DNA of 64,000 bases from Candidatus Adlerbacteria bacterium (GTDB lineage Bacteria > Patescibacteriota > Minisyncoccia > Phycocordibacterales > SBAW01): NCBI GenBank assembly GCA_963749085.1, contig CAVVLG010000002.1:19178-83177 (forward strand), in the 5' to 3' direction. Position numbers and translations under genes: made by a program. Within the stretch, counting starts at the first letter, position 1; each line of letters starts with the position of its first letter. Shown one piece after another: positions 10,008 through 64,000 of the stretch. Below the pieces are notes generated by a model that saw only the letters and a program-made list of their open reading frames with translations, was not told the origin of the DNA and did no database searches.

Positions 10008-10448
10008 TCAAAAATAATGTTTGAGTAATAGCATGATGCACGCGAGCTTCACGAAGGCGGCAAAGTTCTGCAGTTTGTATTCGTAGCGAGTCACGAGCTT
10101 TCTCCAGTTGTGCATCCACGCGAACAGCCGCTCAATCTTCCACCGGCGCTTGTAGGAGCGCAGCGCCCTGCCGTCCTGTGTTGCTCTGCGCACCCGGCCT
10201 CTGCGATGCGGTGAAATGAGTTTGATGCGGTATTTGTTCAGGAGCGTTCCATCCAGCGGATCGGAATCATATGCTCGGTCAGCCGTGAGGCGAAGCGGAT
10301 TCTGTCGGGTAAATCGCCGGGCAAGCGTGTCTTCAACCAACCGGACTTCGCTCGGAGAAGCAGAGGCCACATAGACGGCGACTGGAAGAGAGCCTTCGTC
10401 CGCAATCGCCATGATCTTGGTGCCTTTCCCACGCTTCGTGGGTCCCAC
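10008..10448 (-). CDS. IS5-family transposase, C-terminal DDE ORF. It is in a different frame from the upstream ORF, implying programmed ribosomal frameshifting or a pseudogene.
   Basis: ...RAYDSDPLDGTLLNKYRIKLISPHRRGRVRRATQDGRALRSYKRRWKIERLFAWMHNWRKLVTRYE is the DDE_Tnp_1 C-terminal signature. It overlaps the N-terminal ORF by ~210 nt. Its stop codon lies in the terminal inverted repeat. Confidence 0.75.
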   Translation of the reverse strand: MGPTKRGKGTKIMAIADEGSLPVAVYVASASPSEVRLVEDTLARRFTRQNPLRLTADRAYDSDPLDGTLLNKYRIKLISPHRRGRVRRATQDGRALRSYKRRWKIERLFAWMHNWRKLVTRYEYKLQNFAAFVKLACIMLLLKHYF

Positions 10449-10780
10449 GCCAAGACCCCCTTTTTTGCCCCCGCGAAGGTGGCATCGAGAAAGCAGCTCC
10501 TGAGCTTGATGCGCCCCCGGTATTCCATGTCCATGGCCAGGGCTTCGACGATGCGGTCAAAGGCGCCGCTCTCCACCCACTGCTGGAACCTGCGATGGCA
10601 GGTCTGGTAGGGCGGGTAGTCTTTCGGCAGGTGCTTCCACTGGGCGCCGGTCTTCAGTGCCCAGAGGATACCTTCCAGTATCTTGCGGTCGTCCTGCCGG
10701 GGACGGCCGCGGGTTTCCAAACGCTTGAGGGGTGTGACAAACGGAGCGATGACGCTCCACTGCTCGTTGGTGAGAGGCAT
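10238..10780 (-). CDS. IS5-family transposase, N-terminal ORF (HTH / DUF4096-like)
   Basis: MPLTNEQWSVIAPF...ILWALKTGAQWKHLPKDYPPYQTCHRRFQQWVESGAFD is the typical IS427/IS1031-group OrfA. Confidence 0.8.
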   Translation of the reverse strand: MPLTNEQWSVIAPFVTPLKRLETRGRPRQDDRKILEGILWALKTGAQWKHLPKDYPPYQTCHRRFQQWVESGAFDRIVEALAMDMEYRGRIKLRSCFLDATFAGAKKGVLAWDPRSVGKAPRSWRLRTKALFQSPSMWPLLLRAKSGWLKTRLPGDLPDRIRFASRLTEHMIPIRWMERS

Positions 10781-10854: not shown

Positions 10855-11112
10855 ATGAAGAAAGGACATCGTGTCGCTCCTGAGGTAAAGGAGCAGATTT
10901 TAGGTCGCATTAAAAACGAAGGGGTCTCCATTGCAGAGGCAGCCAAGGAGCACGGCATCACCAGCCGGATCATTTACAAATGGCTCGGCATGGGGGCGCA
11001 GGGAGCGCCCACCTACGGGGAGGTCTCCAAACTCCGCAAGGAGAACGCCGAACTCAAACAGCTGGTGGGAGAGATCACTCTCAAGCTCTCTGAGGCCCAA
11101 AAAAAGAAGTGA
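10855..11112 (+). CDS. IS3-family transposase OrfA (HTH)
   Basis: MKKGHRVAPEVKEQILGRIKNEGVSIAEAAKEHGITSRIIYKWL...leucine-zipper-like tail. Ends at the A_AAA_AAG slippery heptamer at ~11100-11106. Confidence 0.8.
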   Translation: MKKGHRVAPEVKEQILGRIKNEGVSIAEAAKEHGITSRIIYKWLGMGAQGAPTYGEVSKLRKENAELKQLVGEITLKLSEAQKKK

Positions 11113-11927
11113 GAGACAACAGTACAGTCAACAAGACCCTGCTCGCCAAAGAGCTTGGCGTCTCGCGCCGGAGCCTCTACTACTATGCAACGAAACCAGC
11201 CAAGGACTGGACGCTCAAGTGCCGCATCGAGGAAGTACTGCGGGAGTTTCCCAGCTACGGGCACAAGCGACTGGCACTCCATCTCAAACTCAACAAGAAG
11301 CGGGTGCGCAGAGTCATGCGGCTTTTTGGCATCAAGCCCTACCGCAGGCGCGGTAGAAAACCCAAGCGGGACAAGACGCTCTCGACTCGTGCATACCCGA
11401 ACCTGCTCATGGTCATGCCGCCGGTCCGTCCACACCACATTTGGGTCGCCGACTTCACCTACCTGCCATTCCATGGACGGTTCGTGTACCTCGCCACGGT
11501 CATGGATGTTTTTGGCAGGGAGATTGTCGGCTGGAGCGTGCTCACGACGCACTCAACGCAGTTAGTACTCGGAGCGCTGTTTTCGGCCCTGCAGCAGCGA
11601 CCGCCTCCAGCGGTCTTCCACAGCGACAACGGTAGAGAGTATGGGTCCAAGGGCTTCATCGAAGCGCTCACCCTCTTGGGTGTTGCGGTATCCCGCTCAA
11701 AGAAAAGTTGTCCATGGGAGAACGGGTATCAAGAAAGTTTCTACTCTCAGTTCAAGGTGGACTTGGGAGATCCGGAGCGCTTTGAAACGCTTGGTGAGCT
11801 GGTGTATGAAATCCATCAGGCGATATGCCACTACAACACGAGGCGCATCCATTCCAGACTCCGGATGCCGCCCGCAGTGTTTGCCGCCGCTCACAGAACT
11901 GCTACACTACAAGCAATCGTTCACTAG
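11109..11927 (+). CDS. IS3-family transposase OrfB (DDE integrase core), reached by a -1 frameshift from OrfA
   Basis: HIWVADFTYLP...HSDNGREYGSKGF...SKKSCPWENGYQESF is the rve integrase DDE motif. It overlaps the orfA end. Confidence 0.8.
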   Translation: MRDNSTVNKTLLAKELGVSRRSLYYYATKPAKDWTLKCRIEEVLREFPSYGHKRLALHLKLNKKRVRRVMRLFGIKPYRRRGRKPKRDKTLSTRAYPNLLMVMPPVRPHHIWVADFTYLPFHGRFVYLATVMDVFGREIVGWSVLTTHSTQLVLGALFSALQQRPPPAVFHSDNGREYGSKGFIEALTLLGVAVSRSKKSCPWENGYQESFYSQFKVDLGDPERFETLGELVYEIHQAICHYNTRRIHSRLRMPPAVFAAAHRTATLQAIVH

Positions 11928-53488: not shown

Positions 53489-53564
53489 GGGCCCGTAGCT
53501 TAGTTGGTAGAGCGCCTCATTTGCAATGAGGAGGTCAGGAGTTCGAATCTCCTCGGGTCCACCA
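53489..53564 (+). tRNA. tRNA-Ala (anticodon TGC), G3:U70, CCA encoded
   Basis: GGGCCCG...CCTCA-TTTGCAA-TGAGG...AGGAGTTCGAATCTCCT-CGGGTCC-A-CCA. Confidence 0.85.
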
Positions 53565-53576
53565 TAGTTATTTGTA

Positions 53577-53604
53577 TTGCAATCACACACAAAAAATTTA
53601 TACT
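53577..53604 (+). promoter_or_regulatory. Sigma-70-type promoter candidate (TTGCAA, 16 nt, TATACT) directly after tRNA-Ala(TGC), driving the 157-aa ORF
   Basis: Hexamers read directly from the sequence. An RBS AGGAA lies 8 nt before the ATG at 53663. Confidence 0.4.
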
Positions 53605-53662
53605 GTTCATAGACTTGTTATCTCGTCGCGCTTGACAGCGCATAACCTAGAGGAATGAACCT

Positions 53663-54136
53663 ATGGCCCTTCACGCTGATGTACGTTTACGGAGAAGCGA
53701 AGAAACTATACAGTTTCCTATGTCAAATGGGAAACCAATGGACTCAATTCGCGGGCGAAAGCCTCTGCCCTTGGTGATAAGTGGCAAGGCAGGAGGAATT
53801 ACCATTCTCTACAGTTTTAATCGCTGCGGGGGACCCATCCTTGGGGAAGAGGCGAAGCAAAATGTAGAAAAGGCATTTACTGAATCCAGAGTAAATGTCA
53901 TGAAACTTACTTTTGCTCGTTACAGCGACGACACTATTAACTGTACCGCGGACCTCGCTGAATCTCACGCTGGGCTAGGGACATACCGAGTTCCACTCTT
54001 CGTGCGGGGCGATATCACCATGTGTTTCGAATCGACCGATAACACTGGGCTTGCGTTCAACCTCGTTTATTGTCTTTGGAAAGTTTTCAAGCCCAAAAAC
54101 TATGTTCTCGATGCAAGTTTTTGGCAAAGTCGTTGA
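53663..54136 (+). CDS. Hypothetical protein (orphan; island cargo)
   Basis: ORF with an RBS, followed by a strong terminator. No recognisable motifs. Confidence 0.45.
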   Translation: MALHADVRLRRSEETIQFPMSNGKPMDSIRGRKPLPLVISGKAGGITILYSFNRCGGPILGEEAKQNVEKAFTESRVNVMKLTFARYSDDTINCTADLAESHAGLGTYRVPLFVRGDITMCFESTDNTGLAFNLVYCLWKVFKPKNYVLDASFWQSR

Positions 54137-54141
54137 AGCTC

Positions 54142-54172
54142 GCGTCGGTCTAAAGACCGACGCTTTCTTTTT
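54142..54172 (+). terminator. Rho-independent terminator
   Basis: GCGTCGGTC-TAAA-GACCGACGC hairpin followed by TTTCTTTTT. Confidence 0.7.
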
Positions 54173-54202
54173 ATATCAATCTCCTATACAGTTTTTCCTA
54201 AC

Positions 54203-54276
54203 GCACCCTTAGCTCAGTTGGCTAGAGCGCACCCTTCACACGGGTGAGGTCGCAGGTTCGAGTCCTGCAGGGTGCA
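54203..54276 (+). tRNA. tRNA-Val (anticodon CAC), no encoded CCA
   Basis: GCACCCT-TA-GCTC-AGTTGGCTA-GAGC-G-CACCC-TTCACAC-GGGTG-AGGTC-GCAGG-TTCGAGT-CCTGC-AGGGTGC-A. Confidence 0.8.
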
Positions 54277-54328
54277 CCTCTATATTTAATTTATTCAAGA
54301 TTTTCATTTGTACGTATGATTATTTATA

Positions 54329-55054
54329 ATGGACTTCAAAACGGCTGTCGATTTGTTAAATAGGGCTCTTATGAAAAGGCAGCCCGAGCATTTCAGTAGC
54401 TCCTGGATTTTCAAGCACACGCCATGCGCATATCATTATTTTCGACTCAACGTCAGGGCAGTAACCGGCGAGATTGATTGGGATACCATCACCACAGAGT
54501 TGGATCGGCCATTTCAAAAACGATGGACACGACGCCGGCGAAAGCGCCGAGAATTGCTTAAGCTCTACAGAAGCAAGCCTGAAGTCCAAGCGATTTTCAA
54601 GAAGTACAAAAATCAGCAATATGTATTCCTCAGCGCCAAGACACCCGAGGAATGGCGTGCGAGAGATCGTATCAGTATTGCACTCATGCGTGTCGCTCAG
54701 AAAGGCAATATCACTGCACAAAAAGAATTAATCGATCTCCTTATCTACACCGTTCAAAACTGGACTGAGCGGTACCCGTACTTTTATAGATGGAAGCACT
54801 ATAGTGATTTGCTACCCGACCATATTGAGACCTGCATGCGACGATATCATTTCACCGGCTCGTTCATTCAGTATCTGTACATATCTTTGATGTACTCAGC
54901 CCGAGCGCTCAAACGCATCCAAGTGTATTCTCTCGACAAGCCAATTTATGACGATGACGAAATAACATTAGCTGAACGCGTGGTTCAAGATCCGACTACC
55001 GGTGAGATAAAGATATACGAAGCCGGTCACTTAAGCGACTATCAAAATCTCTAA
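54329..55054 (+). CDS. Hypothetical protein (orphan; island cargo)
   Basis: 241-aa ORF with a basic stretch RWTRRRRKRRELLKLY. No recognisable domain. Confidence 0.45.
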   Translation: MDFKTAVDLLNRALMKRQPEHFSSSWIFKHTPCAYHYFRLNVRAVTGEIDWDTITTELDRPFQKRWTRRRRKRRELLKLYRSKPEVQAIFKKYKNQQYVFLSAKTPEEWRARDRISIALMRVAQKGNITAQKELIDLLIYTVQNWTERYPYFYRWKHYSDLLPDHIETCMRRYHFTGSFIQYLYISLMYSARALKRIQVYSLDKPIYDDDEITLAERVVQDPTTGEIKIYEAGHLSDYQNL

Positions 55055-55130
55055 AAAAAGTTGAGCAAGCGCTCGACCCTTTTGTCTTTTGTTGTTATAT
55101 TTTTGGGGTCGAAAGCTGTGCGGGGCGTCT

Positions 55131-55191
55131 TATAGTGGCATTATACACGCTTCGGGTGCGTGAAACCCGAGTTCGATTCTCGGCGCCCCGA
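55131..55191 (+). tRNA. tRNA-Pro (anticodon CGG), atypical D region (short D-loop, no nucleotide 26), no CCA
   Basis: Acceptor CGGGGCG/CGCCCCG is a perfect 7-bp stem. Anticodon stem CACGC/GCGTG with loop TTCGGGT. T-arm CCGAG-TTCGATT-CTCGG. 61 nt to the discriminator A; D-arm pairing is non-canonical. Confidence 0.55.
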
Positions 55192-55206
55192 CAGGGTTTT
55201 CGACAG

Positions 55207-55277
55207 GGGCTCATAGTAAAGTGGTATTACGCGGCATTCGCATTGCCGAGGCCCGGGTCCGATTCCCGGTGAGTCCA
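55207..55277 (+). tRNA. tRNA-Ala (anticodon CGC), G3:U70, 7-nt D-loop, no CCA
   Basis: GGGCTCA-TA-GTAA-AGTGGTA-TTAC-G-CGGCA-TTCGCAT-TGCCG-AGGC-CCGGG-TCCGATT-CCCGG-TGAGTCC-A. The G3:U70 Ala identity pair is present. Confidence 0.65.
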
Positions 55278-55282
55278 CAAAT

Positions 55283-55311
55283 TTGACAGACATATAAAAT
55301 ATGTGATACAC
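55283..55311 (+). promoter_or_regulatory. Cassette promoter copy A: perfect -35 TTGACA, 16 nt, TG-extended -10 GATACA. It begins the conserved ~70-nt leader that ends in RBS GGGAGG
   Basis: TTGACAGACATATAAAATATGTGATACA read directly. The same module recurs at 55993, 56574 and 63775. Confidence 0.45.
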
Positions 55312-55378
55312 AAATAAAAGACATCGGACTTAGTAATCCGCTCGTTCTCACCATTCTAACGCGCCAAGGGAGGCGGCA

Positions 55379-55696
55379 ATGGCACTATCCTTCGCACTGA
55401 GTATCTATTTCACAGTCGGTCTTCTCTTTTCGGTTGGATTCTGGACGGTCATCATAAAGGCTTACGCTTGTGAAAGAAGCGAGGGGACACTCCATGCAAT
55501 ACAAGAAGAATTGAATACGCAATCTGCCTACCTCGACACTTTGTTGCAAGTGTATCCAGCCCTTATCCTACTGCTTGCGGTATTTACTGCCATCATCTGG
55601 CCTATACCATTGATGATAATACTGCTCAGCGTAGTAAAGGGACTTATAAGTGGACTTCGGACAGGCATTCGAGCACTTCTGGCAAGGAGACGCTGA
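55379..55696 (+). CDS. Cassette ORF 1: small two-TM membrane protein (105 aa)
   Basis: RBS GGGAGGCGGCA-ATG. Two hydrophobic helices. Followed by a terminator. Confidence 0.5.
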   Translation: MALSFALSIYFTVGLLFSVGFWTVIIKAYACERSEGTLHAIQEELNTQSAYLDTLLQVYPALILLLAVFTAIIWPIPLMIILLSVVKGLISGLRTGIRALLARRR

Positions 55697-55706
55697 AGAA
55701 TTTAAC

Positions 55707-55740
55707 AGCCGTCGCTGAAATATGGGGCGGCTTTTTCTTT
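55707..55740 (+). terminator. Intrinsic terminator of cassette 1
   Basis: AGCCGTC...GGCGGCT stem followed by TTTTTCTTT. Confidence 0.5.
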
Positions 55741-55997
55741 ATAACGCCACTTAATCCAATACCCACTCTGTGCCTCTTACACCAATTATCCGCTAAACCC
55801 CTTCAAGAGCTTTCTGTAACACCGGACTGCTCTGGTAGTACCCCAAAAACCGAGAAAGATACTGTTTTAACCTGTTCGAGGTATACTCCCCACGGTGGGG
55901 TAGGACACCAAACTCTCCAATTCCCGAATACTCGCTCGTATCTCCTCCTTCCACCCCAAAAGTTCTGAAAGCCACCCTATTTGCCCACAAATTTGAC
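55735..55997 (+). repeat. Cassette 3' module copy 1 (conserved core, a ~120-bp extra segment, and the tRNA-3'-end-like junction ...GCCCACAAATTTGACA)
   Basis: ACTTAATCCAATACCC...GGACTGCTCTGGTAGTACCCC-AAAAACCGAGAAAGATA is shared with the copies at 56405 and 57165. Confidence 0.6.
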
Positions 55998-56021
55998 AGA
56001 TATTTCAATATATGGTAAATA
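55993..56021 (+). promoter_or_regulatory. Cassette promoter copy B (TTGACA, 17 nt, TGgTAAATA)
   Basis: Diverged copy of the promoter/leader. A leader hairpin ACGGATT-TAG-TAATCCGT follows. Confidence 0.4.
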
Positions 56022-56085
56022 AATAACAGTTACGGATTTAGTAATCCGTTCGTTCCATCAATTCTAACCCGCATGGGAGGACATC

Positions 56086-56373
56086 GTGCAAGAGAATAAG
56101 TCGATAATTTCCCAGACTCGGGGAGTGCAGCTGTTGGGTTGGACAGGCTCTGTACTCGCGCTGAGCATGTATCTAAGCTTTATTGACCAGATTCAGCTGA
56201 ACATCGCCGGTCATAAAGGCTCATGGATTATCCCACTCATCGGTACACTCAGTTGTAGTGTCTGGACAGCTTATGCGTGGTTGTTAAAGCCCCGCAACTG
56301 GCCGCTTATCGTATGTAATGTGCCAATGGTCATCCTTGGGCCTATGACCGTATTAACTACCTTCTTCTGGTAG
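56086..56373 (+). CDS. Cassette ORF 2: small polytopic membrane protein (95 aa, GTG start)
   Basis: RBS GGGAGGACATC-GTG. Three hydrophobic segments. A terminator follows directly. Confidence 0.45.
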   Translation: MQENKSIISQTRGVQLLGWTGSVLALSMYLSFIDQIQLNIAGHKGSWIIPLIGTLSCSVWTAYAWLLKPRNWPLIVCNVPMVILGPMTVLTTFFW

Positions 56374-56379
56374 CACAAC

Positions 56380-56407
56380 CCCCGGCAGCGATGCCGGGGC
56401 TTTCTTT
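56380..56407 (+). terminator. Intrinsic terminator of cassette 2
   Basis: CCCCGGCA-GCGA-TGCCGGGG hairpin followed by CTTTCTTT. Confidence 0.65.
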
Positions 56408-56576
56408 AGGTCTCGTTACTTAATCCAATACCCTCACTGTGTCTCTCCCATAATTCTTCCATCAGGCGCTTTCAAGTGCTTTCTGCAGCGCGGGACTGCT
56501 CTGGTAGTACTCCCAAAACCGAGAAAGATAGGTTTTTAGGGAGTTCAATGTTTTAATGCCTGTGTCCACAAATTTG
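56405..56576 (+). repeat. Cassette 3' module copy 2 (~170 bp, ends GTGTCCACAAATTTGACA)
   Basis: Aligned by eye to copies 1 and 3. The terminal ...GGGAGTTCAATGTTTTAATGCCTGTGTCCA resembles a tRNA T-arm and acceptor 3' end. Confidence 0.6.
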
Positions 56577-56693
56577 ACAGACATATAAAATATGTGATAC
56601 ACAAATAAAAGACATCGGACTTAGTAATCCGCTCGTTCTCACCATTCTAAAGCGCCAAGGGAGGCGGCAATGGCACTATCCTTGCACACTCAT
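56568..56693 (+). repeat. Near-identical (~98%) duplicate of 55272-55397: promoter, leader, RBS and the first five codons ATGGCACTATCCTT
   Basis: Direct comparison shows one mismatch in the leader (CTAACGCG vs CTAAAGCG) and divergence only after codon 5. Confidence 0.8.
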
Positions 56694-57153
56694 CAACGTC
56701 AAAACCGCAACGCCTGAACCGATAGCGGCAATACACGCTTCTATCGCAATGCCACACGTGTATCGCAGACCCGTTTACGTGAATGGACGTCGCTATTTGG
56801 ACGGCACAGGAGGTATACCTTTTCCCGCGCGAGAAGTTATCGAGCGGTGGGGTCTCACCGGACTTGTTGTACTCGCTAATCAACCACGGGATTGGCGACG
56901 CTCCCTAAAACGTAAGCTACTTGAGTTTGGAGCAATCTCACTTCTGCCTAAAGGTCCGCGCAAAACTTCTCGAAAGCGTTTGGAAATATTTGGAGAAAAT
57001 CTGCAGTATCTACGCTCGGGCCGCGTTCCTTACCTGATTGTCTGGACTGACGATGAGGTAGAAATATTCGAGCGTGACCAAACCAAACTACGAGGCACCG
57101 CAGAACGAGCGGGGGAGTTTATGAGCAGTCTACTTGAACGTGCGGGCACTTGA
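56669..57153 (+). pseudogene. Patatin-like phospholipase, C-terminal half only, fused in frame to the duplicated cassette leader (an ATG...TGA mini-ORF, then an in-frame ATG at 56749)
   Basis: ...AAIHASIAMPHVYRRPVYVNGRRYLDGTGGIPFP... matches the patatin ASxAxPxxFxPVxIdGxxYVDGG region containing the catalytic-dyad Asp. The upstream half with GxSxG is absent, and the sequence before it is the shared leader. Confidence 0.5.
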
Positions 57154-57170
57154 GCCCGCACGTTTTCTTT
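57140..57170 (+). terminator. Intrinsic terminator of cassette 3
   Basis: GTGCGGGCACTTGAGCCCGCAC hairpin overlapping the stop codon, followed by GTTTTCTTT. Confidence 0.6.
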
Positions 57171-57337
57171 AGGTCTCGTTACTTAATCCAATACCCTCAC
57201 TGTGTCCCTCCTTAGGTCTCTCTGCTAAGCCCGCTCAAGCGCTTTTTGTAGAGCCGGACTGCTCTGGTAATACTCCCAAAACCGAGAAAGATAGATTTTT
57301 ATGGAGTTCAATGTTTTAATGCCTGTGTCCACAAATT
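57165..57337 (+). repeat. Cassette 3' module copy 3 (ends GTGTCCACAAATTTaaaa; the TTGACA is lost)
   Basis: Aligned to copies 1 and 2. The next ATG, at 57348, lies 17 nt after the junction. Confidence 0.6.
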
Positions 57338-57347
57338 TAAAATTCTT

Positions 57348-57863
57348 ATGACACTCACCACTCACGCATTGGTTGGAGCCGCCGCTGCGAGTCTTTTCTC
57401 ACAGAAACCGGTCCTTGCATTTGCGGCCGGTTTTGTGAGCCATTTTTGTATTGATGCCATTCCACATTGGGATTATCGGCCAGAGTCCATGATCAAGGAT
57501 AAAAATAATAAACTGGCGACGGACATGATACTCGGCAAATCTTTTTTTAAAGATCTGATCTTTATAGGAAGTGATGCGCTACTCGGGCTTGCCCTCAGTG
57601 TCCTTATTTTTAGTCTATGGCTCTTTCACGTGCCTATAGCCATAATTACCTTGGGCGTCATCGCAGCCATACTGCCTGACCCACTGCAATTTATCTACTA
57701 CAAAACTCACTCAAAGCTTTTGGAGCCGCTCCAGAAATTCCACGCGGTGTGGCTGCAGCAAAAAAGTCCCATAAACGTTCCGGCATGGATAGGGCTCGGT
57801 CTGCAAGCCCTGCTCGTAGCGACAGTCGTCGGCATCTTAAAGATAATTCACCCTGTGTTATAA
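57348..57863 (+). CDS. Polytopic membrane protein upstream of atpB (possibly YdjM/DUF457-like metal-dependent membrane hydrolase); function unknown
   Basis: MTLTTHALVGAAAASLF...HFCIDAIPHWDY... His-rich N-terminus followed by about four TM helices. Confidence 0.4.
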   Translation: MTLTTHALVGAAAASLFSQKPVLAFAAGFVSHFCIDAIPHWDYRPESMIKDKNNKLATDMILGKSFFKDLIFIGSDALLGLALSVLIFSLWLFHVPIAIITLGVIAAILPDPLQFIYYKTHSKLLEPLQKFHAVWLQQKSPINVPAWIGLGLQALLVATVVGILKIIHPVL

Positions 57864-63698: not shown

Positions 63699-63769
63699 GG
63701 GCCCATAGTATAGCGGTAGAACGGTTCCATGGCATGGAACAGGTCGGGGTTCGACTCCCCGTGGGTCCA
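63699..63769 (+). tRNA. tRNA-Ala (anticodon GGC), G3:U70, no CCA
   Basis: GGGCCCA-TA-GTAT-AGCGGTA-GAAC-G-GTTCC-ATGGCAT-GGAAC-AGGTC-GGGGTTCGACTCCCC-GTGGGTCC-A. Confidence 0.75.
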
Positions 63770-63774
63770 CAAAT

Positions 63775-63802
63775 TTGACAAGACCACATATATTTGTATA
63801 CT
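63775..63802 (+). promoter_or_regulatory. Promoter/leader module copy E (TTGACA, 16 nt, TG-extended TATACT) directly after tRNA-Ala(GGC); interrupted 18 bp later by the IS3 copy
   Basis: Same tCCACAAATTTGACA junction as the cassette copies. Confidence 0.45.
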
Positions 63803-63819: not shown

Positions 63820-64000
63820 TGGCAGGTACCCCGAAATTTTCTCACCAAGTCGATGAGATTAACCGCTCATTTTTAGTAGAATCGAGGTATGAAGAAAGCA
63901 CATCGCATATCGCAGGAGGTGAAGGATCAGATCCTTGGGCGCATTAGAAACGAAGGGGTGCCGGTCGCGCAAGCGGCCAAAGAGCACGGCCTCCATGAGA
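63820..64000 (+). mobile_element. Second IS3-family element (left end, partial; diverged paralogue of the 9937 copy)
   Basis: Left inverted repeat TGGCAGGTACCCCGAAATTTTCTCACCAAGT, about 90% identical to 9937-9967. OrfA starts at 63889. Confidence 0.7.
63889..64000 (+). CDS. IS3-family transposase OrfA (partial, runs off the window end)
   Basis: MKKAHRISQEVKDQILGRIRNEGVPVAQAAKEHGLHE, compared with MKKGHRVAPEVKEQILGRIKNEGVSIAEAAKEHGITS in copy 1. Confidence 0.75.
   Translation, partial: MKKAHRISQEVKDQILGRIRNEGVPVAQAAKEHGLHE

Follow-up and report, generated by a model that had tools for sequence, protein, structure and literature searches.

A 64,000-nucleotide stretch of the Candidatus Adlerbacteria bacterium genome (contig CAVVLG010000002.1; hereafter the window, with positions counted from its first letter) contains an array of three single-gene modules, ~2.06 kb in total, stacked between the gene for tRNA-Ala(CGC) and that for a 171-aa membrane protein. 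Each module opens with a 5' block carrying start signals, continues with a single cargo gene, unrelated to those of the other modules, and a strong terminator, and closes with a 3' repeat (“rep”) of 160-250 nt. In the last module, the block that opens module 1 recurs almost unchanged in front of the broken half of a patatin-like gene. The explanation toward which we lean, with confidence only slightly above even, is that integrase-less modules accreted at the tRNA-Ala gene in the manner of cis-mobilizable elements (CIMEs), and that the recurring block is the head end that a later deletion left of another copy of module 1.

In the window, a repeat search pairs 55270-55392 with 56561-56683 (123 nt, 98% identity). 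Base-by-base comparison reduces this to a continuous 120-nt run with a single mismatch, 55273-55392 against 56564-56683, preceded by two more matching bases, TG, at 55270-71. The mismatch (55360 C versus 56651 A) lies in the leader, between a palindrome and the Shine-Dalgarno sequence. On the right the duplicate ends after ATGGCACTATCCTT, which corresponds to four codons plus 2 nt, or 14 nt into the gene. The initial annotation of this DNA, which described a duplicated block of about 125 bp at ~98% identity, was right about the repeat itself, although its right edge (55397/56693) was placed ~5 nt too far. The duplicate is not a chance resemblance, because only four repeat families of at least 40 nt exist in the window. 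A third, more distant copy of the block, implied by the same annotation, is also present:

55273-55392, + strand: block A, first copy of the duplicate, from the sequence and the repeat search
55985-56085, + strand: block B, a 77%-identical paralogue of A with the same core, TTGACA and GGGAGG, and a GTG start
56564-56683, + strand: block C, second copy of the duplicate, with one mismatch to A, at 56651

Blocks A and C differ by 0.8% (1/120 nt), while block B is 77% identical to A and the reps are 75-84% identical to one another. With reps that differ by 16-25%, the A/C duplication is therefore recent, as had been proposed, and it does lie within a cassette-like array, physically joined to a different gene.

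Repeats of this size (the 120-nt block, and ~80 nt identical between the reps of modules 2 and 3, called rep2 and rep3) can confuse short-read assemblers, and the duplicate might thus stem from the assembly or from a mixture of strains. There would then be alternative haplotypes (tRNA-A-gene1... versus tRNA-A::patatin remnant) or a mis-resolved path through the repeat; swapping paths at A/C would yield a chromosome without modules 1 and 2, plus a 1,291-bp circle. The Logan assembly of run ERR12036785 is indeed fragmented exactly at the repeats. One contig passes tRNA-Ala and stops exactly 30 nt inside block A, and a second starts exactly 30 nt before the point at which rep2 and rep3 diverge, continuing into the 171-aa gene. 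The Logan assembly uses k = 31, and breaks at k-1 bases are expected at true branch points. The block and the rep therefore each have two contexts in the reads, which argues against an artefact of a single assembler: the independent contigs break as a true repeat would, although the linkage of the copies on single molecules is not proven by this. In addition, the block-to-patatin junction is unique sequence of a kind that a misjoin at a repeat could not create. The two copies are also told apart by one base and by their left contexts, both of which the branch points of the independent k-mer assembly imply, and the source contig is 518 kb long. An artefact is quite improbable.

Block A comprises, in order, the core GTCCACAAATTT, the hexamer TTGACA, an AT-rich palindrome ACATATAAAATATGT, a second palindrome CGGACTTAGTAATCCG (55325-55340), and the Shine-Dalgarno sequence GGGAGG (55368-55373). 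It ends with an ATG at 55379 and 11 more coding nt. The blocks share this order, with the second palindrome a conserved one of 6-7 bp. In block C, the grafted ATG at 56670 opens a mini-ORF (open reading frame) of 15 codons on the + strand (56670-56717, MALSLHTHQRQNRNA and a stop codon), and behind it comes the patatin fragment that the initial annotation had reported at this place:

56686-57153, + strand: 5'-truncated remnant of a patatin-like gene, corresponding to ~residues 152-306 of the full-length homologues

The patatin frame is open across the junction, and its alignment, which starts at nt 56689, covers residues 152-304 in a patatin protein of 306 aa (58% identity, E 1e-50); about 200 further ~300-aa proteins align as well. 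This homology starts 5 nt past the end of the block. The full-length homologues are patatin-like (PF01734), and the nearest of them occupies an ordinary chromosomal setting between smpB and ftsH; the Pfam model, for its part, is matched by the remnant over no more than its final 35 positions (E 0.005). As the alignment begins only at residue 152, ~151 N-terminal residues are missing, including the serine half: the DGTGG Asp motif is kept, and the half with the GxSxG serine nucleophile is absent. The grafted ATG and the patatin frame (56650+3n) are offset by one base. The first in-frame start, an ATG at 56749 from which gene callers predict a 134-aa ORF, is not preceded by a Shine-Dalgarno sequence. 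Neither the pair of Ser and Asp motifs nor an open frame with a ribosome-binding site, as expected of a functional patatin-like phospholipase, is found. The junction between block C and the patatin gene is a non-productive deletion scar or pseudogene.

This bears directly on the reading that follows from the initial annotation, in which homologous recombination between leaders grafts an active promoter and leader onto another gene, with a new expressed fusion as the outcome, and the leader may itself be a cis-regulatory RNA. Homologous recombination, like site-specific recombination, would suit the left edge, which lies at the shared core GTCCACAAATTTGACAG, in sequence common to all of the blocks, but it does not suit the right edge, where there is no homology. 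Here the inside of codon 5 of gene 1 is joined to the middle of the patatin gene, and an illegitimate deletion or join is therefore needed. Nor is a gene fusion created, since the grafted ATG is out of frame and its reading stops after 15 codons, upstream from a gene half that is catalytically incomplete. Another possibility is that the block plus the first five codons (encoding for example a leader peptide MALS-) forms a standard cassette head, and that module 3 is independent and has always been built in this way. The identity does end at the codon-5 position in both copies, but block B opens its own different protein (GTG-CAA-GAG), the homology to patatin starts in the middle of the protein and in a different frame, and the full-length homologues have N-termini of their own in ordinary chromosomal contexts. 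A standard head is thus highly improbable.

As for the leader RNA, no other part of the leader is as well conserved between A and B as its palindrome (21/23 nt), and the palindrome motif CGGAYTTAGTAATCCGYTCGTTC occurs three times, against 0 expected. The hairpin had been described roughly correctly: in block B (56032-56049) it has a perfect 7-bp stem, ACGGATT/AATCCGT, but in A and C two pairs are lost, an inner one that becomes C.A and the outermost one. Compared with shuffled sequences, the leaders fold with z-scores of +1.0 (A), +0.6 (C), and -0.9 (B), so A and C are no more stable than their shuffles. Rfam searches at gathering and E<=1 thresholds match nothing but the tRNA genes, and hence no family for the leader. 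The differences between the A and B leaders disrupt sense-strand pairs without compensation, in a comparison of only two variants and of low power, and the sole stem substitution gives C.A on the sense strand. A cis-regulatory RNA is thus not supported by either folding or covariation, and the proposal of an expressed fusion under a regulatory leader is, taken as a whole, improbable. On the antisense strand, the C.A turns into G.U and the hairpin forms in both variants (-6.3 and -7.7 kcal/mol). A terminator scan flags the palindrome on the minus strand of all three copies (55325-55340, 56032-56049, and 56616-56631), each with a T-rich tail after it. There is a hint here, resting on one informative substitution, that the palindrome could act as a backstop terminator on the antisense strand or bind a protein.

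The left edge of the duplicate has a simpler basis, which is found at the tRNA gene:

55121-55192, + strand: tRNA-Pro, given for the feature order
55207-55278, + strand: tRNA-Ala(CGC), intact, with its G3:U70 pair (ARAGORN; Rfam, 62.3 bits)
63765-63800, + strand: the core for the fifth time, at the tRNA-Ala(GGC) 3' end; next come a block-like TTGACA..ACATAT..TGTATAC stretch and then an IS3-family orfA

The insertion is directly at the 3' end of the complete tRNA-Ala(CGC), as in accretion arrays. The end of this tRNA, GAGTCCA, runs into the shared core, and block A begins within the last 6 nt of the tRNA. The core GTCCACAAATTT (GACAG) is found at 55273, 55983 (GCCCAC), 56564, and 57327, and again after tRNA-Ala(GGC) at 63765. 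Its form CCACAAATTTGACAG is exact at 55275, 55985, and 56566, has one mismatch after tRNA-Ala(GGC) (63767), and is degenerate at the junction between rep3 and the chromosome (CCACAAATTTAAAAT). Direct repeats of the tRNA 3' end, 10-17 nt long, are thereby present at the distal end of the array and at the internal junctions. The last 10 nt of the rep, TGTGTCCACA (TG[T]GTCCACA), match the acceptor 3' strand of tRNA-Ala plus trailer, TGAGTCCACA (TG[A]GTCCACA), at 9/10 positions. Since the rep ends much like tRNA-Ala and one core is found at all of the module junctions, the left edge of the duplication is a module boundary.

The modules measure 0.6-0.76 kb, and their conserved arms (rep plus block) make up almost half of each. 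The features between the blocks and the reps, together with the gene that closes the insertion site on the right, are the following:

55379-55696, + strand: cargo gene 1, an open reading frame for a hydrophobic 105-aa orphan protein
55707-55732, + strand: terminator hairpin of gene 1, then a U-run (-14.1 kcal/mol, z -3.0)
56086-56373, + strand: cargo gene 2, a 95-aa SemiSWEET/MtN3-like membrane protein (Pfam, PHROG)
56380-56399, + strand: terminator hairpin of gene 2 (-17.4 kcal/mol)
57136-57165, + strand: terminator hairpin after the patatin remnant (-22.6 kcal/mol, z -5.2)
57348-57863, + strand: conserved 171-aa membrane-protein gene, right flank of the insertion site, preceding the ATP-synthase operon

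In a database search, the only match of the gene 1 product is itself. The gene 2 product matches PF03083 just under the cut-off (E 6.5e-5) and phrog_37682 (E 3.9e-20). A GC hairpin with a U-run stands 3' of every cargo gene, with z-scores from -2.9 to -5.2. The perfect TTGACA of the blocks, along with the terminators that isolate each gene, suggests that each block would serve as the promoter of its module. Exact look-ups of the gene 1, gene 2, 171-aa, and patatin ORF proteins give no contig, and those of AtpE and of an upstream orphan 241-aa protein do find Logan contigs. Several homologues of the 171-aa protein (36-47% identical) occur per genome in Bradyrhizobium and Mesorhizobium, one of them plasmid-borne; such a distribution is unusual for a gene that lies beside the atp operon in Patescibacteria.

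The third conserved element of the modules is the rep, of which there are three copies. These constitute a 161-nt repeat family (D1), and a sequence-only covariance model made from them (R1) scores 112-144 bits on the three copies and finds nothing elsewhere in the window:

55746-55992, + strand: rep1, 3' repeat of module 1 (model R1, 112 bits), ending GCCCACAAATTT; the most diverged copy, with an 88-nt insertion
56415-56574, + strand: rep2, 3' repeat of module 2 (144 bits), ending TGTGTCCACAAATTT
57178-57337, + strand: rep3, 3' repeat of module 3 (139 bits), ending TGTGTCCACAAATTT and joining the chromosome at AAAATTCTT-ATG; identical in a Logan contig (L050)

On its opposite strand, every rep has an ORF of ~35 codons ending ..YLSRF(W/L)(E/G)YYQSSP(A/V)LQKALExx-stop. 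This micro-ORF is also conserved in the rep of a metagenome contig, L001:

55793-55894, - strand: micro-ORF in rep1, conserved part (..YLSRFLGYYQSSPVLQKALEGV, then stop; ORF list)
56462-56569, - strand: micro-ORF in rep2 ((V/M)DTGIKTLNSLKTYLSRFWEYYQSSPALQKALESA, then stop), which could extend to a GTG at 56602
57225-57332, - strand: micro-ORF in rep3 (..DTGIKTLNSIKIYLSRFWEYYQSSPALQKALERA, then stop; ORF list)
L001 1747-1854, strand opposite to the rep: micro-ORF of the L001 rep, a conserved ORF

The stop is at the same position in all of the copies. Among rep2, rep3, and L001, the changes within the micro-ORF are mostly synonymous, with Pro, Ala, and Leu codons varying at the wobble position, and the ratio of nonsynonymous to synonymous changes (pN/pS) is 0.13 in its own frame versus 0.28-2.3 in the other five, which contain stops. 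AlphaFold predicts a long helix and a short one (pLDDT, the predicted local distance difference test, 85), a model that says nothing on function. The 24 codons nearest the core have the same nucleotides in genomes whose third positions are saturated elsewhere. These 78 nt beside the core, conserved even at wobble positions, point to a possible additional role at the DNA or RNA level.

Other identities for the rep were considered and rejected. It is not the C-terminal remnant of a larger common protein such as an integrase, as a search of 5.8 billion clusters yields no shared words; the coding signature is real in spite of this. The rep ORF has no Pfam, PHROG, or NCBIfam match and no viral locus, and exact look-ups are empty. 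A structured RNA is not supported either: RNAalifold, on both strands, proposes a hairpin ACTCCCAAAACC/GGTTTT-GGGAGT in which the changes are uncompensated, and Rfam has no match for the rep as a partial tRNA or other RNA family. “Gene capture” by a split integrase of the Sulfolobus spindle-shaped virus (SSV) type is rejected too: it calls for the N-terminal portion of an integrase at the opposite end of every module, where the antisense frames close within ~20 codons.

Comparison with relatives shows both the empty and the occupied insertion site. In the closest relative found (contig L002, 69% identity on the 171-aa protein), the site is empty: the 171-aa gene follows tRNA-Ala(CGC) by ~35 nt, and a rep is absent. 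A different + strand gene fills this gap in L004, and in L006 it holds ~2.4 kb, apparently coding on the minus strand. As the gap after tRNA-Ala holds other genes in these two relatives, it is a hotspot. A scan of L002-L006 with model R1 detects no rep. The metagenome contig L001, on the other hand, has a rep directly upstream from its 171-aa homologue. There, rep and rep2 share a perfect run of 78 nt, whereas the adjoining gene is only 62% identical, and 37.5% at third positions. This identity would imply mobility, nucleotide-level constraint, or both. The presence of the rep at one site in two well-separated lineages, and its absence from a third and closer one, fits a site-specific insertion. 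L001 also has an extra 175-aa gene (707-1234, opposite strand) between the 171-aa gene and atpB, and the right flank is therefore variable between lineages as well.

From these elements a history of the array can be proposed. Modules would have been added at the 3' end of tRNA-Ala by site-specific recombination, either successively or already arranged in tandem, with a recombinase whose gene lies elsewhere. The junction formed by rep, core, and block, conserved over ~290 nt, has the size and layout of an attP (phage-type attachment, or att, site), with P arm, crossover core, and P' arm. The 123-nt duplicate would be the first part of a further module 1 copy, which stood at the rep2 junction. 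A later illegitimate deletion, running from codon 5 of this gene 1 copy through the next junction and into the middle of the patatin gene of the following module, would have fused block C, in the wrong frame, to what remained of that gene, its 3' half.

Several results weigh against such a history. Identity to the tRNA is short, at 10-17 nt. No module was observed in circular or excised form, the evidence on excision being indirect and limited to the breaks of the k-mer contigs at the edges of the repeats. A sigma-70 scan calls a promoter in none of the blocks, because the -10 element is poor, and the micro-ORF has no Shine-Dalgarno sequence, no clear promoter, and no homologue found. There is no recombinase inside the modules, no integrase among the top Pfam families listed for 50 window ORFs, and no match (0) in a crude search for the box-II integrase motif; the recombinase must therefore act in trans, or else the modules are no longer mobile. 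DNA-pattern and peptide scans of viral contigs and blastn against phages and plasmids find nothing, and a metagenome scan finds L001 only. Since rep and block turned up only in this genome and L001, the case for mobility rests on two lineages. Finally, the two-step order, with a second copy and then a deletion, is indistinguishable from other orders of events.

Some of these points would equally suit a single composite island, in which the 2-kb array arrived or evolved as one unit, with rep and block as internal paralogous repeats of a regulatory or intergenic kind, and the modules are individually immobile. Block C would then result from unequal crossing-over or replication slippage within the array, followed by a deletion. 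No recombinase lies nearby, rep and block are limited to two lineages, L001 shows only the last rep because the contig ends there, and the GC content of the array is only slightly below the genome average (0.47 vs 0.52). Against this stand the tRNA-like core shared by every junction, the unrelated cargo genes with their own start signals and terminators, the different ages implied by reps that diverge by 16-25% next to A and C that diverge by 0.8%, and the occurrence of a core and block-like start after a second tRNA-Ala gene. A composite island is a possible explanation, though a rather doubtful one.

Accretion at tRNA-Ala, the history we prefer, has close parallels. CIMEs and tandem accretion arrays occur at tRNA and tmRNA genes, for instance ICESt1/CIME of Streptococcus thermophilus (PMC5704250). 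Like the modules described here, they are integrase-less, keep their att sites, and lie head-to-tail at a tRNA 3' end with internal att copies, and they show decay and deletion within the array along with an empty site in relatives. In contrast, the present modules are only 0.6-0.76 kb long with a single cargo gene and arms that account for almost half of them, identity to the tRNA is limited to 10-17 nt, the host is a Patescibacterium, and no cognate integrase or helper element is identified. Tycheposons build tRNA-linked genomic islands in Prochlorococcus (10.1101/2020.12.28.424599). In these, too, successive integrations at one tRNA displace older elements inward, leaving degenerate remnants and partial tRNA repeats, and niche-gene cargo is carried in a streamlined genome. 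They differ in being kilobases long and in carrying a tyrosine recombinase and often replication genes, of which there are none here; nor do the present reps contain a partial tRNA that Rfam can recognize. The resemblance to integron cassettes lies in the array of single unrelated genes, separated by a recombination-site-like repeat and devoid of a recombinase of their own. However, there is no intI, attI, or Pc, the flanks being tRNA genes and the ATP-synthase operon, and an imperfect hairpin of the attC type, built around a GTTRRRY core, is absent: the only inverted repeat in rep plus block is one 8-nt pair. Unlike integron cassettes, the modules also bring their own start signals and terminators, target a tRNA 3' end, and have a conserved opposite-strand micro-ORF in the repeat between genes. 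As for patatin-like phospholipases (PF01734), the whole remnant aligns to the C-terminal half of these ~300-aa proteins, with DG(T)GG kept, but it differs from them in lacking the N-terminal ~151 residues with the Ser nucleophile and an in-frame start with a ribosome-binding site.

Taken alone, the duplicate is what decay ordinarily leaves behind in a variable islet, and should not be annotated as a fusion gene or riboswitch. Its context is of greater interest, as a clean case in which very small cargo modules accreted at a tRNA gene, in a reduced Patescibacteria genome of ~0.5 Mb. It offers a signature that can be reused (rep, core, and block), a relative with the site unoccupied, and a conserved micro-ORF that had escaped annotation. 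If the modules are individually mobile, they would be among the smallest cargo-carrying integrative units known, and would provide a handle on the exchange of accessory membrane and transport genes among ultra-small genomes. A wider and unlikely generalization is that Patescibacteria harbor integrase-less, self-expressed single-gene cassettes, each with a ~290-nt junction of rep, core, and block that forms a complete attP and includes a conserved antisense micro-protein gene, which a trans-acting recombinase inserts at tRNA-Ala 3' ends. If true, such cassettes would be functional parallels of integron cassettes, each with its own promoter and terminator.

The surroundings of the array are variable as well. 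The whole tRNA cluster Ala-TGC, Val, Pro, Ala-CGC (53489-55278; 7865-9966 in L002; 1769-9337 in L004) is a hotspot, with orphan genes for 157-aa and 241-aa proteins between the tRNAs in the window, where the gaps of relatives hold different genes or none. The 241-aa protein was considered as a hidden recombinase and set aside, as it has no family or PDB match and its single-sequence AlphaFold model (pLDDT 41) is unusable. Elsewhere in the window there is an IS3-family element (orfA 10855-11112, orfB 11109-11927) that adjoins tRNA-Leu and, on the minus strand, an IS5-like transposase gene with a frameshift (10008-10780). Another IS3 orfA, ~75% identical, starts at 63888 just after tRNA-Ala(GGC), apparently inserted into the block-like TTGACA..ACATAT..TGTATAC stretch.

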